From an uncultured Chloroflexia bacterium (lineage in GTDB: Bacteria > Chloroflexota > Limnocylindria > QHBO01), in contig CAWBBG010000009.1 in assembly GCA_963787025.1 (NCBI GenBank), forward strand, positions 7,765 to 71,764: a DNA stretch of 64,000 bases, read 5' to 3'. The translations under genes and the position numbers were made by a program. The notes beneath the pieces were generated by a model. It ran no database searches and was not told the DNA's origin. It saw only the letters and a list, made by a program, of their open reading frames with translations. How positions within the stretch are numbered: the stretch's first letter is position 1; each line of letters starts with the position of its first letter. Positions 10,090-17,232 of this stretch are shown here, piece by piece.

Positions 10090-11145
10090 TCAGCCCGCCC
10101 CGGCGCCGTGGCTGGCGGACCAGGCCAGGAGGCGCTCGACCTCCCATGCGTTCACGACACGATCCGCCTCCACGCCGCACAGGAACGCGCGCTCGGCCCC
10201 GTTCGGCAGCCAGGCAAGCTGTCCCGGCGCGTGCGCATCCGAGTCGATGGCGAACCGGCAGCCGGCCTCGACGGCCAGGCGCAGGAGCCGCTTTGGCGGA
10301 TCGAGGCGCTCGGGGCGGCTGTTGACCTCGACCGCCTTGTCGAAACGGGCGGCGGCCGCGAACACGATCTCCGCGTCGAACGCCGACGGCGGACGGCGGC
10401 GGCGCCCGGTCACCATCCGCCCGGTGACGTGTCCCAGGACGTCGAGGTGTGGATCCGCCAGCGCGGTGACCAGCCGACGCGTCATCAGCCGCCCCTCCAT
10501 GCGCAGCTCCGAGTGAACGCTGCCGACCACCAGGTCCAACCGCGCGAGCAGGTCCCGCTCCTGGTCCAGTGAGCCGTCCGGCAGGATGTCGACCTCGATC
10601 CCGGTCAGGATCCGGAAGGGTGCGAGGTCGCGGTTCAGCTCCGCCACATGGTCCAGCTGCTCGCGGAGCCGATCGGCGGAGAGGCCCGTTGCGACCGTCA
10701 GCCGCGGAGAGTGGTCAGTGAGCACCATCCAGGCATGGCCCATGTCGCGCGCGGTTTCGGCCATCTCCCCGGGCGATGCGTCGCCATCGGACCAGTTGGA
10801 ATGGACGTGGCAGTCTCCGCGGAGCGCTGACAGCAGCTCGGCCGCGCCTTCCGACACGGGCCGTCCGCCGGTCGCCTCGAGGCGCCGGAGGTAGACCGGC
10901 TCCTCGCCGCGCAGGGACTCGCTGATCGTGCGCTCGAGCACCTCGCCGATGCCGGGCAGCTGGCGCAGCGTCCCGGCGCGCACGCGATCGGCGACCTCCT
11001 CCGGCATCAGCCGCGCCAGCCGCGCCTCGGCGGCGCGGAAGGCGCGCACGCGGTGCGTCGGCTCATTCGCGGCCTCGAGCAGGAACGCGATCCGGCGCAG
11101 ATCGGCCCGCGGGTCGCGCGGCTTTGGTGCGTCGCGGTCGCTCAT
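10090..11145 (-). CDS. PHP domain protein with PolX-type N-terminal helix-hairpin-helix domain (no polymerase palm)
   Basis: LPGIG HhH motif; GDCHVHSNWSDG, LTDHS, GIEVDIL.DGSLD, VHS, VLGH.TGR, IDSDAH PHP motifs. Confidence 0.88.
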   Translation of the reverse strand: MSDRDAPKPRDPRADLRRIAFLLEAANEPTHRVRAFRAAEARLARLMPEEVADRVRAGTLRQLPGIGEVLERTISESLRGEEPVYLRRLEATGGRPVSEGAAELLSALRGDCHVHSNWSDGDASPGEMAETARDMGHAWMVLTDHSPRLTVATGLSADRLREQLDHVAELNRDLAPFRILTGIEVDILPDGSLDQERDLLARLDLVVGSVHSELRMEGRLMTRRLVTALADPHLDVLGHVTGRMVTGRRRRPPSAFDAEIVFAAAARFDKAVEVNSRPERLDPPKRLLRLAVEAGCRFAIDSDAHAPGQLAWLPNGAERAFLCGVEADRVVNAWEVERLLAWSASHGAGAG

Positions 11146-11172
11146 CAACGCGGATCGGGCCGGGGCGGCCGG

Positions 11173-12111
11173 TCAGCCGACGGTCAGGATCCGGCGTGGG
11201 TTCTCCACGGTCATCGCCGCGATCTCGCCCTCGCCCACCGCCGCCGTGCGCAGGTGCGGCAGGAAATGCTGCGCGACGTAACCGTAGCCCGTCCCGCCGA
11301 AGGTCCTCAGCTGGTCGCTGGTGCACACGTTCTGGCTGAGAAGGATCCGGTCGGAGAATCCGCGTTCCAGAAGCTCGACGAGCAGCTCGACCAGGCGCGC
11401 CTCGCGCGCCGCGGCGCCCTCGCCGGACCGGCCGAGGAGGTCGAAGCACAGGTTCGCCCCGCGCTCGAGGAGGGCAAGCTGGTAGTCGAGTTCCGGTACG
11501 GAGTCCGCGTGGCTGATCACGACTCGCGACGGATCGAGGCGCTCTTCCTCGAATATGTGCAGCTGCGCCAGCGCGACCGCGCTCCACAGCGAGTGGGTCA
11601 CCACCGCCAGGCCGCTGCGCACCGCCGCGCGCGCCGCCGCCCGATGCACGCGCTCCTCGCGCGGGCTGATCCAGGCCCGGTCGGTCCCGATCTCACCGAT
11701 GATCCCCGGGTGGACGCCGGTCTCCGCCACGCCGTGCTCAACCTCGGCGACGATCTCGTCCGCAAGATCGTCGGCGCTGCGGCGGTCGATGTCCGCCTCG
11801 GCCGGGTAGAAGCTCTCCCGGTACCAGCCGGCGGACATCACGATCGCCAGGCCGGTGCGCGTGGCGAGGTTCCGGAGCCAGACCGGGTCGCGGCCGAGCC
11901 CGGGAGGCGTCAGGTCCACGACGCAGCTCCCGCCGCGCCGCCGGAAGTCGCGGAGCTCGTCGGCCATGACCTCCGGGTCCGACGTGAAGTCGACGAGCTG
12001 CCGGCGGTCGGAGACACGCTCGAGCCGGCAGGACGTGTGCTCGTGGGGAAGGGTGAAGCCGATCCGCTCTGGCGGGACCGGCCCGCTCACGGTGAGTACG
12101 CGCGGGGCCAT
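11173..12111 (-). CDS. Phosphotriesterase-related amidohydrolase (PTE/PHP-like)
   Basis: G.TLPHEH, VDLTP.GLGRD, GIIGEIG, VTHS, ISHAD, AMTVENPRRIL. Confidence 0.9.
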   Translation of the reverse strand: MAPRVLTVSGPVPPERIGFTLPHEHTSCRLERVSDRRQLVDFTSDPEVMADELRDFRRRGGSCVVDLTPPGLGRDPVWLRNLATRTGLAIVMSAGWYRESFYPAEADIDRRSADDLADEIVAEVEHGVAETGVHPGIIGEIGTDRAWISPREERVHRAAARAAVRSGLAVVTHSLWSAVALAQLHIFEEERLDPSRVVISHADSVPELDYQLALLERGANLCFDLLGRSGEGAAAREARLVELLVELLERGFSDRILLSQNVCTSDQLRTFGGTGYGYVAQHFLPHLRTAAVGEGEIAAMTVENPRRILTVG

Positions 12112-12292
12112 CCGTCTGCACCTCGATGCGCTGGGACGCCGGTCGACGGCTGCTGGTCGCCGGCGCCGCGGTTCTTCCTGTCGGCGACCATCTTGCCACG
12201 CGGGTTCCGGGCTGGTCCCCGCGCAGCGCAGCCGCTAGCCTTGACCGATACCCCGATCAGAGGGGCCCATCGGTCCACGACGAGGAGGAGTC

Positions 12293-13555
12293 ATGGCGTC
12301 GCGCAACGCAGTCGATGACGACGTCTGGTCTGAGGCGCAGGCCGAGCTTGACGCCGCGGCCGAACGGCTGGGGCTTGACGACGCGATGCACCGTGTCCTG
12401 CGGGTCCCGAAACGCGAGCTGGAGGTCCACTTCCCGGTCCACTTCGATGACGGGCACGTCGAGGCCTTCACCGGTTTCCGTGTTCATCACAACCTGAACC
12501 GTGGCCCGGCCACCGGTGGCGTGCGCTTTACGCGGGACCTGACGCTGAACCTGGTCCGCGCCAACGCGATGTGGAACACCTGGAAGGCCGCGCTGGTCGA
12601 GATCCCGTACGGGGGCGCCTTCGGCGGCGTGGTGGTCAACCCGCGCCGGCTTTCGCCGCACGAGCGGGAGGGGCTCACGCGGCGATATGCGACCGAGATC
12701 AAGCTGCTCGCAGGCCCCGAGCGCGACATCCCGAGTCCAGACGTCAACACAGGGTCGCAGACGATGGCCTGGATGATGGACACCTTCAGCATGCACCTGG
12801 GCTACACCGTGGCCGGCTCCGTCTCCGGCAAGCCGCTGCCGGTGGGTGGTACCGCCGGGCGTCGCGAGGCCACCAGCCGCAGCGCGTTCCGTGCCACCCT
12901 GGCCCTGGCGGCCGCCAGGGGGATCGCGCTCGACTCCGCCCGCGTCGCGGTCCAGGGCTTCGGCCGCGTGGGTGGCACGCTCGCCCAGATGCTCGCCTCG
13001 ACGGGGGCGCAGATCGTCGCCGTCGCGGACGACCGCGACGCGGTGCGCGCCGACGCGGGCCTCGACGTCGGAGCGGCGATCGACTGGGTCCGGCAGCACG
13101 ATTCCATCAAGGGCCTGCCCGGCGGCGAACCGATGGCGCGCCAGGACATCTTCGCGACCGACTGCGCCGTCCTCGTCTCGGCCGGTGTGCAGGACCAGAT
13201 CACCCCCGCCGTCGCGTCGGCGATCCGGGCGCCGATCGTGGTGGAGGCCGCGAACGGACCCACGACCCCGGAGGCGAGTGCCATCCTTCGCGACCGGGGC
13301 ATCGCCGTGCTTCCCGACATCCTGTGCACCGCGGGCAGCATGGTCCTGGGCTACTTCGAATGGGTCCAGGACATGCAGTCGTTCTTCTGGAGCGAGCAGG
13401 AGATCACCGCGGATCTCGACCGGATCATCGACGGCGCGACGGCAGCCGTGGTTGCGCTGGCCGAGAAGCAGCGCATCGACCTGCGAAGCGCGGCCACCAT
13501 GCTTGCCGTGCAGCGCGTGGCCGAGGCGACGACCCTGCGCGGGCTCTATCCCTAG
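12293..13555 (+). CDS. Glu/Leu/Phe/Val dehydrogenase family protein with substituted active-site lysines
   Basis: GFRVHHN..RGP, QGFG.VG Rossmann motif, EAANGPTT, YFEWVQ; GGAG-type RBS at about 12283. Confidence 0.9.
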   Translation: MASRNAVDDDVWSEAQAELDAAAERLGLDDAMHRVLRVPKRELEVHFPVHFDDGHVEAFTGFRVHHNLNRGPATGGVRFTRDLTLNLVRANAMWNTWKAALVEIPYGGAFGGVVVNPRRLSPHEREGLTRRYATEIKLLAGPERDIPSPDVNTGSQTMAWMMDTFSMHLGYTVAGSVSGKPLPVGGTAGRREATSRSAFRATLALAAARGIALDSARVAVQGFGRVGGTLAQMLASTGAQIVAVADDRDAVRADAGLDVGAAIDWVRQHDSIKGLPGGEPMARQDIFATDCAVLVSAGVQDQITPAVASAIRAPIVVEAANGPTTPEASAILRDRGIAVLPDILCTAGSMVLGYFEWVQDMQSFFWSEQEITADLDRIIDGATAAVVALAEKQRIDLRSAATMLAVQRVAEATTLRGLYP

Positions 13556-13577
13556 GGGGCATCCTCCGCGACCCGGC

Positions 13578-13652
13578 GACCGACCTCGGGGCGGGATCCA
13601 CGGACTTCCCCCCTTTGGCGTCCGCGTGACCCCGCCCTGAAAGAGGTCGGTC
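13578..13652. terminator. Long imperfect hairpin between convergent genes
   Basis: GACCGACCTC 13578-13587 pairs with GAGGTCGGTC 13643-13652; inner GGGCGGG/CCCGCCC and CACGGAC/GTCCGCGTG stems. Confidence 0.55.
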
Positions 13653-13663
13653 CTCCATCCCCC

Positions 13664-14050
13664 TCAGGCGGCCGGGCTCGGATGAGCCATCACCGGCGCC
13701 CACGCCGATTCCGCCGCGTAGCTCGAAAGGAGCACGGCAGGATCGGATGCAGGCCGATCGTTCAGATCCAGCCCGGTGATCGCCTCTATGGATCGTTTGA
13801 ACCACAGGTCAAACGGGTCCATCGAGATGGCGAGCAGGCTCATTGCCCTTGGGAAGTCCTCCGCCTCGATCATGCCGATGAGGAGGTCCGTCCCATCGCC
13901 TGTTGTGAACCAGGCCTGCCGCTCGATGCCCAGCCGTCGCTCGCTCCGCGCGAGCTCGTGCGCCCGCGTGTCCCCCAACGTGCGCAGCCAGCTCCTCGCC
14001 ACTTCCCGGGCACCGGGTCGCAGCGGGATCACGAGGCAGGTCTGCTCCAT
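13664..14050 (-). CDS. DUF6176-like small protein
   Basis: 128 aa; P..PG..E.AR.W...L...R..E...SERRLGI..QAWF, S.DPFD.WFK......TG.DL pattern. Confidence 0.7.
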   Translation of the reverse strand: MEQTCLVIPLRPGAREVARSWLRTLGDTRAHELARSERRLGIERQAWFTTGDGTDLLIGMIEAEDFPRAMSLLAISMDPFDLWFKRSIEAITGLDLNDRPASDPAVLLSSYAAESAWAPVMAHPSPAA

Positions 14051-14184: not shown

Positions 14185-17100
14185 TCAGCGCGCGACGCCG
14201 GTGTCCGCGATCCCCAGCCGAATGGCGAACGCCGCGGCCTCGACGCGCGTGCGAACACCGAGCTTCTGCTTGATGTTGGTGACATGGACGCTCGCCGTCT
14301 TGGAACTGATGAAGAGCGCGGTCGCGATCTCGCCGTTCGTCCGCCCGCCGGCCAGCAGGGCCAGCACTTCCCGCTCACGGGGCGTGAGCCGTTCGACCGG
14401 CTCGCGGGTCGGGTCTCGAGGCGCGGTGGCACCGTCCACGGACGCCGCCGGCCCGTTGCCAAGTGGCGCCCCGAGCGCGATACGGGCGCGCTGCGCCAGG
14501 GCCTCGATCCGCGCGATGGTCGGTCGCGCGCCAAGGGCCACGGCGGATGCGTGCGCGGCGCGCAACGGTCCCGCCGCCTCGGAACGCGGCCGCCCGGCAA
14601 GCAGCAGCGCCTCCGCCTGGCGCCACCGGGCGCCAATCTCGTCCCAGGGATGCTCGATGGCCGCGAACTCGTCCGCAACACGGCACCACAGCGCCGCGTC
14701 CGGCTCGCGACGATAGCGAGACAGCTCGGCCCGCGCGAGGAGCAGATCCACCGCGGTGTGCCGGTCGAGCCGCCCGGCAAGGGCCTCGACTGCGGCGATA
14801 TGGGCGTCGAGCCGCCGAACAAGATCGGAGACCAGGGATGACGAGGCGGCGAGCGCCGCATCGTCGCCGCGGGCCCGGGCGGCCTCCGCCACCCCGGTCG
14901 CCGCCTGGAGGCCGCGGACCGTCAGCCATCGGATCTCGCCCGACTCCGGTGCGATCGCCTGCCGGTCCAGGGCGTCGAGTGCCGCGCGCACCTCGCGCAC
15001 GGCGTCCTCGGGCCGATCCAGCTCCAGGTAGAGGTGCGCGCGCTGCTCGTGCGGGCCGTACCAGCCCGGCGCCCGGGCACTGTGGTCACCGCCCAGGACC
15101 CGATCCAGGTGCGCGCTCGCCTCCTCGAAGCGACCCTGGACGATCTCCAGCTCGGCAAGGGCCATGGCCGTCCAGTCGGCCGAAAGCCCGCGCGGGGCGT
15201 GCTCCAGCACCTGGACCGCCATCCGCTCGGCCTCCTCCCAGCGACCGAGGAGAAAGAGCCAGTTCACCGCGATGGCGTTCATCGTCTCCCCGTAGGTCCG
15301 CTCGAGCCCGTTCGCGCGTGCGCGGGCCAGACCCTCCAGCACGACGCCGAGCGCCTCGTGCAGCGATCCGGCCTGGTGCAGCGCCTCCGAGAGGTTGGAT
15401 CGATCGATCGCCTCGTCGCCGAAGAGACCCAGCTCCTGGCTGATCACCAGGCCCTCCCGAAGGTGACCGACGGCGACGTCGGATGCGCCCGAGAGGTAGA
15501 GCACGGTCCCGAGGGTGCTCAGCGCCTTGCCCTGCTCCGCCCGGGCGTCGATCCGGCGCGCGACGGCCAGCGCCTCATCCGCCATCCGCCTGGCCTGCGC
15601 GAGCTGCGAGGCCAGGCTTAGGGCGATCGCCAGCTTGGCGAGAACGTAGGCCCGGAGGGCGCTCGGCGGCTCCGGCGGCACCAGCTCCACGGCGGCCTGT
15701 CGAGCGGCGACGAAACGGTCGAGACGACCGGCCAGGAACTGCGTCTCCCCCAGCCGGACATGGAGGTCCACGCGCACCTCGGGCGCCGCCCCGGCCGCAT
15801 GCTCCAGCGCTCCGTGCCAGCTCTGGATCGCGCGCTCGAAATCGCCGACCGCCTCCGCCGCCAGCGCGGTTCGCGCGTCGAGCTCCCAGCGCTCGATCCC
15901 GAGCACCGCATCGGCGTCCCGGAGACGATCGGCAAGCTCGGTGGCCCGCAGGAGATAAGCCAATGACTCGCTCTGGGCATGAACGCCCCGCGCCTCGTCG
16001 GCGGCCAGCACCAGCGCCGGGAGCGCGCGGCGCATCACGCCGGCCGCATACCAGTGGTTGGCCAGCTCGGCGGCAGCGCGGGCGGGCGACGCGTCACCCA
16101 GCTCCGGCTCCGCCGCCAGCGCCTGGGCGAAGGCGCGGTGCAGCCGGCTGCGCTCGGCGGGAAGCAGTTCGTCGTAGACCGCTTCTGCGATGAGCGGATG
16201 GCGGAAGCCGTATCGCCCGGACCCCGGGTCGGGCACCACCACCGCGCGGTCGACCGATTCGCGCAGGGCCGCGAGGAGCGCGGCCTCGTCGAGGTGTGCC
16301 ACCCGGTTGAGAAGCTGGTGGGAGACGGACCAGCCGACGGAGATGACCCGGACAACCTCGCGCGCCGCCGGGGAGAGCTCACGGAGACGGACCAGCACGG
16401 CGTCCCTCAACGATTCCGGCAGCCGGGCGGCATCGGGATCCCCGGCGGCGAGGAGCTCCTCAGTGAAGAAGGGATTGCCCGCGCTGCGCGCGTAGGTGGC
16501 CCGCAACAGGGCGGACGGCGGATCCCCCCCGAGCAGCTGCGCGACATGCGTGGCGTGCTCCTCCGGTCCAAACGGTGCGAGGTCCAGGCGAGCGGCGCCA
16601 CGCCCACGAATGAGCTGTCCCAGGACGGCGCGCATCGGGTGCAGCGGCGGTAGCTCATCGGTCCGGAAGCTCCCGATCAGACCGATGGGCGCGCCGCCGA
16701 CGTTGCGGGCGAGGTAGACGAGCAGGTCCCGGGTCGAGCGGTCCGCCCACTGCAGATCCTCGAGGGCGAGGATCACGGGCGCGCGGGCGGCCAGCCGGAA
16801 GAGCAGCCCAAGCAGCTGCTCGAAGAGTCGCACCTGCGCAAACTCCTCCGGGAGGCCCGCCACCGATGGTCGGCTGGTGGGTGCGGGTCCAAGGCTGGGC
16901 AGCAGACGGCCGAGATCGGCGCCGATGGGTCCCGACCTGGCCAGGACGGATCTGCCCGGGTCCTCGGTGAGCGGCCGCAGGGCCTCGACGATGGCGACAT
17001 AGGGCAGCGCGGCCGTCTCCCCGACATCCACCGCACCACCGGAAAGCACCAGCGCCCCGCGGGCGCGGGCGCGGCCCGCCCATTCGGCGATGAGCCGGCT

Positions 17101-17232
17101 CTTGCCGATGCCCGCCTCGCCACCGACCAGGACAAGCCGCAGCCGATCGTCTTCGCCGCCGAGCAGCCGGTCGAGCGTCGCCAGCTCATCGGTGCGGCCG
17201 ATGAACCGCGCGCTCGTGCCTCGAACAGCCAT
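14185..17232 (-). CDS. Large ATP-binding LuxR-family (LAL/MalT-like) regulator: AAA ATPase, TPR region, LuxR HTH
   Basis: GEAGIGKSRL Walker A, LEDLQWAD Walker B, GNPFF, C-terminal LTPREREVLALLAGGRTNGEIA..LFIS.KTASVHVTNI..KLG. Confidence 0.93.
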   Translation of the reverse strand: MAVRGTSARFIGRTDELATLDRLLGGEDDRLRLVLVGGEAGIGKSRLIAEWAGRARARGALVLSGGAVDVGETAALPYVAIVEALRPLTEDPGRSVLARSGPIGADLGRLLPSLGPAPTSRPSVAGLPEEFAQVRLFEQLLGLLFRLAARAPVILALEDLQWADRSTRDLLVYLARNVGGAPIGLIGSFRTDELPPLHPMRAVLGQLIRGRGAARLDLAPFGPEEHATHVAQLLGGDPPSALLRATYARSAGNPFFTEELLAAGDPDAARLPESLRDAVLVRLRELSPAAREVVRVISVGWSVSHQLLNRVAHLDEAALLAALRESVDRAVVVPDPGSGRYGFRHPLIAEAVYDELLPAERSRLHRAFAQALAAEPELGDASPARAAAELANHWYAAGVMRRALPALVLAADEARGVHAQSESLAYLLRATELADRLRDADAVLGIERWELDARTALAAEAVGDFERAIQSWHGALEHAAGAAPEVRVDLHVRLGETQFLAGRLDRFVAARQAAVELVPPEPPSALRAYVLAKLAIALSLASQLAQARRMADEALAVARRIDARAEQGKALSTLGTVLYLSGASDVAVGHLREGLVISQELGLFGDEAIDRSNLSEALHQAGSLHEALGVVLEGLARARANGLERTYGETMNAIAVNWLFLLGRWEEAERMAVQVLEHAPRGLSADWTAMALAELEIVQGRFEEASAHLDRVLGGDHSARAPGWYGPHEQRAHLYLELDRPEDAVREVRAALDALDRQAIAPESGEIRWLTVRGLQAATGVAEAARARGDDAALAASSSLVSDLVRRLDAHIAAVEALAGRLDRHTAVDLLLARAELSRYRREPDAALWCRVADEFAAIEHPWDEIGARWRQAEALLLAGRPRSEAAGPLRAAHASAVALGARPTIARIEALAQRARIALGAPLGNGPAASVDGATAPRDPTREPVERLTPREREVLALLAGGRTNGEIATALFISSKTASVHVTNIKQKLGVRTRVEAAAFAIRLGIADTGVAR

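Follow-up and report, generated by a model that had tools for sequence, protein, structure and literature searches.

The locus described here raises the question of what a glutamate dehydrogenase (GDH), an enzyme that connects carbon with nitrogen metabolism, is kept for after the loss of its catalytic lysine. The window, a stretch of 64,000 nucleotides (64 kb) of DNA from an uncultured member of the Chloroflexota, carries such a gene, P0001, at positions 12293 to 13555 of the plus strand. Translation gives an intact reading frame of 420 amino acids. A Shine-Dalgarno-like sequence, GAGGAGGAG, can be read directly at positions 12282 to 12290 of the same strand, with the end of its GGAGG core 4 nucleotides 5' of the ATG. 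A preliminary description made from the letters alone had called the frame full length, intact and well provided with a ribosome-binding site, which agrees with these findings. A scan of positions 11900 to 13900 for promoters and terminators found none.

The product shows both Pfam domains of the Glu/Leu/Phe/Val dehydrogenase superfamily over its full length, ELFV_dehydrog_N (PF02812; E value of 5.5e-45) and ELFV_dehydrog (PF00208; E value of 2.6e-57), each with a score far over the cut-off, which places it in this superfamily. The GDH equivalogs of NCBIfam match with scores of 412 (cut-off of 750) and 388 (cut-off of 620), far under their cut-offs. The top PDB matches are GdhB from Thermus thermophilus (3aoe_A and 3aog_A) and the GDH from Thermotoga maritima (1b26), with gapless alignments and E values of ∼1e-118. 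The AF2 model built from a deep alignment of 124 rows reaches a pLDDT of 95.8 and a pTM of 0.93, and Foldseek aligns it with the hexameric GDHs at TM scores of 0.95 (1b26) and 0.93 (3aoe and 3aog). Domain I comprises approximately residues 39 to 185 and the NAD-binding domain II residues 186 to 355. The low confidence of domain I in a model from 29 clade-only rows (mean pLDDT of 61) was set aside as an artefact of alignment depth, as the 124 rows gave a confident domain. P0001 shares 54 to 57% identity over the full length with the canonical GDHs of its own lineage (e.g., G006:C5:33788-35026), GdhB and T. maritima GDH (3AOG and 1B26), together with their length, their two-domain fold (TM scores of 0.93 to 0.95) and the C-terminal RGLYP. 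Judged by these matches, it is a full-length homologue of the hexamer-type GDHs.

The catalytic lysine of the GGxKGG motif is Lys125. [quoted passage not shown] The place of Lys125 within the motif was fixed by Gly122 and Gly123 of the same study, and the residues of P0001 were mapped to this numbering by motif spacing. The gapless alignment with GdhB pairs RGPATGG (residues 70 to 76) with RGPAKGG, YGGAFGG (residues 106 to 112) with YGGGKGG, GFGRVG (residues 222 to 227) with GFGNVG, and CTAGSMVLG with ANAGGVTVS. Thr74 (codon at 12512 to 12514, plus strand) thus replaces Lys89, Phe110 (12620 to 12622, plus strand) replaces the catalytic Lys125, and Arg225 (12965 to 12967, plus strand) replaces Asn240. 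In contrast to the canonical GDHs, which carry these three residues, P0001 is further altered at the sites of Gln110 (Asn95), Ala163 (Ser148), Val377 (Met350) and Ser380 (Gly353), and with Thr74 and Gly353 neither binder of the glutamate side chain is left. Lys98 (12584 to 12586, plus strand), the equivalent of the alpha-carboxylate binder Lys113, and Asp150 (12740 to 12742, plus strand), the equivalent of Asp165, are retained beside the two lost lysines and are invariant across the clade of related proteins described below. Since both Lys125 and the nicotinamide-holding Asn are lost, P0001 is very unlikely, as read from its sequence, to catalyze the normal GDH reaction.

The three motif changes are those named in the preliminary description, and the same sites are altered in the 120 closest homologues. 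The roles given there to the two lysines hold in part. Substrate binding is correct for Lys89, the binder of the gamma-carboxylate, and the other residue is the catalytic Lys125; the Schiff base also ascribed to them does not apply, as no enzyme-substrate Schiff base is involved.

The 120 closest homologues in the databases reach down to 68% identity, and all of them read RGP[AT][T/A/S]GG, xGGA[F/M/A]GG and G[FY]GRVG; because they share these changes without exception, chance is not the explanation. Their source names are MAGs of Chloroflexota or Candidatus Limnocylindria, and the JGI annotation is glutamate dehydrogenase. The pocket of 129 members of this lysine-less clade was compared with that of 32 canonical GDHs from the same class and of 106 representatives that bear the lysine. 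At 24 positions with a conserved residue throughout both other sets, the 129 members carry a residue of their own. The Lys89 site holds T, A or S in 129/129 members and K in all canonical copies; the Lys125 site holds M (83 members), F (41) or A (5), compared with K in every canonical copy of that comparison; the Asn240 site holds R in 128/129. The replacements, in P0001 numbering, include Q65H (100%), K74T, H80T, V83L (100%), M95N, K110M/F/A, D116N, A148T/S, N225R (99%), S245A, P296S, A298G (100%), N346T/S, V350L/M and S353G/S/A. Among them, H65, T80, L83, R225 and G298 are fixed at 98 to 100%, with H65 at 100%, T80 at 98% and R225 at 99%, and T74 and N95 reach 95% and 92%. Several fall on universally conserved GDH sites, namely, the Gln110 site (M to N), A163 (to S/T), V377 (to L/M), S380 (to G/S/A) and N346 (to T/S).

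A basal member of the clade, locus L036 (G009:C44:47190-48458), shows RGPATGG and FGGAMGG together with GFGDVG and CATGGVTVS. From its motifs it looks like an intermediate in which the lysines were lost ahead of the remaining remodelling of the pocket.

Other parts of the protein are strictly preserved. The clade alignment contains more than 150 invariant columns, among them K98, D150, the loop glycines G222, G224 and G227, D246 (position 7 of the dinucleotide fold), T194 and N321. In the Thermus enzyme, the allosteric leucine site is built from one Arg, one Asp and the C-terminal R..YP (PMC9570180), and the equivalent residues R131, D163, R416, Y419 and P420 are all invariant in the clade. 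Within the genus, the dN/dS ratio of the lysine-less copy is 0.09 to 0.18 (∼0.1; Nei-Gojobori method), with values of 0.11 to 0.18 for P0001 against its orthologues there, compared with 0.08 to 0.13 for the canonical paralogue in the same genomes; its dN is ∼2.2 times that of the canonical copy across 91 genome pairs, so that it evolves faster than this paralogue at nonsynonymous sites. By these ratios the gene is under purifying selection and is not decaying, and the relaxed selection that the preliminary description had named as a sign against its reading does not appear among the orthologues. Identity by domain was considered as a mark of kept interfaces and rejected: P0001 and the canonical copy are 68% identical in domain I and 46% in domain II, and pairs of canonical GDHs at equal divergence give a similar ratio (1.36 versus 1.48). 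On this comparison, the higher conservation of domain I is generic to the protein family and does not discriminate.

The occurrence of the lysine-less copy was followed with a profile from the clade, searched against 200 genomes of the class. In the family of the window, f1, ∼60 of 65 genomes score at the lysine-less level (at least 651 bits, plus the basal form of G009), across a narrow boundary of 651 versus 645 bits; the motifs were read directly in 22 genomes of f1 and 17 others. The four other families show no lysine-less copy in 134 genomes, with best scores of at most 603 bits, the canonical level. Within the genomes searched, and by these profile scores, the lysine-less copy occurs in a single family of the class. 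Two genomes of f1, G023 (95% complete) and G204 (91% complete), have the canonical copy only, and G164 and G189 (82 to 83% complete) are assigned to neither state. The tallies include unpublished genomes, G010, G020, G100, G109 and G136 in f1 and G081, G104, G119, G125 and G162 elsewhere, on which no conclusion rests; the tree and the dN/dS analysis omit G010 and G020.

Nearly all lysine-less genomes of f1 also carry a canonical GDH on the same contig, 20 to 30 kb away, and in more than 30 genomes the two copies lie on one contig at this distance in divergent orientation. Among 40 relatives, all genomes of the same genus possess this second copy, with ∼55% identity, 20 to 28 kb away on the opposite strand of the same contig. 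The second copies, all of whose matches were extracted, read RGPAKGG, YGGGKGG, G[FY]GNAG and CNAGGVTVS and are canonical. The assembly that contains the window (2.34 Mb in 27 contigs, 80.8% complete) has P0001 as its single ELFV gene, and a second GDH is found neither in the 64-kb window nor in the whole of this assembly. Position 1 of its contig (G000:C9) aligns with G006:C5:35912, and the two contigs are collinear up to the lysine-less gene with 78 to 85% nucleotide identity, except for one short segment. The canonical GDH of G006 lies at C5:33788-35026. Because the contig of P0001 stops ∼0.9 kb short of the equivalent place, its orphan state is, from this synteny, most simply an assembly gap. 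The genome search for an active GDH proposed in the preliminary description thus gives none in the assembly itself and a canonical copy in nearly all relatives. The statement made there that no catalytic partner is adjacent is literally correct, and extends to the window and the assembly, but the contig ends just before the site at which the relatives carry their GDH; an orphan state is not supported for a gene whose relatives have a canonical GDH 20 to 30 kb away and whose own MAG is 81% complete.

Two further observations concern canonical-type copies. Locus L049 (G008:C40:384-1619), otherwise canonical (RGPAKGG, GYGNAG and CNAGGVTVS), reads YGGGTGG in one genome, a change of the catalytic Lys to Thr. 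L049 lies outside the canonical comparison set in which Lys125 is K throughout, and its Thr may stem from an error in sequencing or from a second, very recent loss. A third, canonical-type paralogue is present in some genomes of the class (loci L062 to L070, e.g., G002:C12:2450-3667 and G026:C1:53693-54934). The f1 copies of this paralogue show FGGAKGG and PDMGT or PDVGT, the f2 copies show LGGAKGG and PDVNT, and all show GFGNVG, with positions on different branches of the tree.

The alignment and phylogeny called for in the preliminary description place the lysine-less clade among the canonical GDHs of its own lineage. The tree of 96 sequences (IQ-TREE; LG+C20+F+G4 PMSF; quick search) gives the clade an SH-aLRT support of 100 and nests it within a clade of support 99 that also contains the canonical GDH of the family and lies itself inside the canonical GDH clade of the class. 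A 36-row tree is concordant, with supports of 98 to 100. Because of this nesting the lysine-less copy is read as a local duplicate; by the trees, the duplication that produced it took place at the base of a single family of Limnocylindria-like Chloroflexota.

The loss of Lys125 is not restricted to this clade. Among the best 150 representatives of clusters at 50% identity (P0121 to P0270), approximately 20 have A, M, Q, S, F, R, G, C or H at this site, and in most of these the loop Asn is missing as well, as in the lysine-less clade. These other lineages stand at 10 or more separate places in the tree with different substitutions, such as the frequent Leu at the Lys89 site, and the state of Lys125 changes at least 10 times on the tree. 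One of these representatives, P0156, has T. thermophilus GdhA as its best match (3aoe_E; 449 bits) and is found elsewhere in the tree; P0001 itself scores 398 bits with GdhB and 292 bits with GdhA. The free trees, in which this GdhA-like proxy is placed apart, do not support orthology of the lysine-less clade to GdhA. Forcing P0156 and the lysine-less clade together on the 36-row tree costs 18.8 log-likelihood units with an AU p value of 0.067, at which a joint clade is not formally rejected. The placement is suggestive of an origin independent of that of GdhA.

GdhA is the closest functional precedent. Two sources describe GdhA from T. thermophilus (TTC1211; PDB 3AOE, chains C to F) as the inactive regulatory subunit of a GdhA-GdhB hetero-hexamer (PMC9570180) and, likewise, as inactive and regulatory (bioRxiv 10.1101/2025.10.31.685773). 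A literature search for GDH pseudoenzymes and for GDH of Limnocylindria found this Thermus case only. For the inactive-subunit role, PMC9570180 cites Tomita et al. (2010 and 2011). As read from the alignment of P0156, GdhA has the motifs RGPAKGG, MTLKAA, FGGAAGG, GLGQVG and VAVATS. P0001 and GdhA share a full-length hexamer-type GDH fold, the replacement of Lys125 within GGAxGG (Ala in GdhA and Phe in P0001), the replacement of the Asn of GxGNVG (Gln and Arg, respectively), an Ala for the Ser of the VAVSD strand, and an altered NAGGV(T)VS segment. Both keep the Arg and Asp of the leucine site and the C-terminal R..YP. GdhA has a canonical paralogue in the same genome, and so does the lysine-less copy in nearly all relatives of the MAG that carries P0001. 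Unlike GdhA, which keeps Lys89, P0001 has also lost this residue. The lysine-less and canonical genes lie 20 to 30 kb apart on opposite strands, in contrast to the side-by-side gdhA and gdhB genes of Thermus, and the lysine-less clade nests in the canonical GDHs of its own lineage. P0001 shows the GDH fold, the missing catalytic Lys and the purifying selection of a GdhA-type protein without the adjacent operon.

The immediate neighborhood of P0001 is conserved. A phosphotriesterase (PTE)-family gene (PF02126; Pfam E value of 6e-60) lies divergently at positions 11173 to 12111 on the minus strand and is present in the same position at 18 of 19 checkable related lysine-less loci (L007 to L025). 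It was considered as a functional partner, and no functional link is drawn because the wider region is also syntenic; from the synteny, the linkage may reflect only shared ancestry. Upstream of the GDH-like gene, the PTE-family gene is accompanied across the family by a gene for a PHP-domain/HHH_8 protein (PolX-like C terminus; here at 10090 to 11148 on the minus strand), and the two are a conserved pair. Directly downstream lies an open reading frame of 128 amino acids (13664 to 14050, minus strand) with no Pfam match, and a frame of equal size is found at the corresponding site of two related contigs (L002 and L003). It is followed at 14185 to 17232 on the minus strand by the gene for a STAND-type transcription regulator of 1,015 amino acids with AAA_16, TPR and LuxR (GerE) domains, which also adjoins the lysine-less gene in a close relative (L002). 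The annotations of these flanks and of those in two relatives include no ATP-grasp/PPDK_N gene.

The reading favored here, to which about an even chance is given, is that the lysine-less protein would be a noncatalytic regulatory subunit or ligand sensor acting on the canonical GDH. The reading rests on the purifying selection, the kept fold and leucine-site residues, the co-occurrence with the parental enzyme and the Thermus precedent, in which GdhA shows the same lesion, with FGGAAGG in place of GGxKGG. The proposal of a pseudo-enzyme or regulatory subunit in the preliminary description fits these observations. The NAD(P)-dependent hexameric GDH native to the lineage was duplicated at the base of the family, after which this copy lost the catalytic Lys125 along with the residues specific for glutamate while retaining the fold, the alpha-carboxylate Lys, the pocket Asp, most of the dinucleotide-binding residues and the inter-subunit residues of the leucine site. 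It would form mixed hexamers with the canonical GDH encoded 20 to 30 kb away, in which it would serve as a regulatory or ligand-sensing subunit that tunes GDH activity, in the manner of GdhA with GdhB in T. thermophilus. Three points count against this reading: the assembly itself contains no canonical GDH, for which the contig end 0.9 kb short is the likely reason; the two genes are neither adjacent nor co-oriented, unlike gdhA and gdhB, and so provide no operon support; and new residues have become fixed in the pocket, a state that would also fit a new ligand or a new reaction. A complex prediction for P0001 and the canonical GDH of the closest relative gives a median score of 0.21, below the mark of 0.32, and is counted neither for nor against binding.

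The missing operon is also one of the grounds for a rather unlikely alternative, a stand-alone, noncatalytic homo-hexamer that would sense NAD(H) or an amino acid and act on another partner or moonlight in regulation without joining the canonical GDH. It is favored by the retention of cofactor-site residues (the GxGxxG glycines, Asp246, Thr194 and Asn321) and of the alpha-amino-acid anchors K98 and D150, by the conserved divergent PTE-family neighbor of the gene, and by a further pseudoenzyme of T. thermophilus, which derives from a dehydrogenase, senses NAD+ and regulates an enzyme unrelated to it (bioRxiv 10.1101/2025.10.31.685773). The parental canonical GDH accompanies the lysine-less copy in nearly every genome, however, and the preserved residues of domain I and the C-terminal leucine site are those that build inter-subunit contacts in GDH hexamers. 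The search brought up no candidate for another partner, and the PTE linkage sits in a generally syntenic region. The strict conservation of the new pocket residues, which show no drift (H65, T74, T80, N95 and R225), the dN/dS ratio of ∼0.1, and the retention of D150, K98 and most NAD-site residues would also suit a neofunctionalized enzyme, in which residues other than Lys125 would serve another NAD(P)-dependent reaction or act on a substrate that is neutral or hydrophobic. This explanation appears quite improbable, as Lys125 has given way to varying apolar residues (M, F or A) and the nicotinamide-holding Asn240 is replaced. To our knowledge, every characterized Glu/Leu/Phe/Val dehydrogenase possesses the catalytic Lys, and the sole characterized relative without Lys125, GdhA, is reported as inactive. 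A pseudogene in decay or an artefact of assembly or sequencing, conceivable from the loss of key catalytic residues and the fragmented state of the MAG, is extremely improbable in view of the intact frame with its good ribosome-binding site, the same substitutions in 120/120 closest homologues from independent samples, the dN/dS ratio and the confidently predicted fold.

A more specific proposal, unlikely on present sequence evidence, regards the remodelled pocket (H65, T74, T80, N95, M/F110 and R225, with K98, D150 and most NAD-site residues kept) as a working ligand site and not a scar. The protein would then either serve as a dedicated sensor, responding to NAD(H) or to a neutral or hydrophobic amino acid and supplying GDH with a new allosteric input, or be an enzyme of the ELFV fold that works without the catalytic lysine.

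The experimental documentation of GDH control by a dead paralogue comes so far from Thermus only. The lysine-less clade would represent a second version, apparently independent in origin and fixed in a family of abundant uncultured Chloroflexota from soil and freshwater. Because the lysine-less genes carry the annotation glutamate dehydrogenase, the number of GDH copies may be miscounted when metabolism is reconstructed from these MAGs. Together with the many other lineages without Lys125, the clade suggests that pseudoenzyme control of GDH recurs widely. If the pocket of the lysine-less protein is indeed a working ligand site, then, along with the 10 or more other Lys125-less lineages, dead GDH paralogues would be a common and largely unrecognized means of control of bacterial carbon-nitrogen metabolism.
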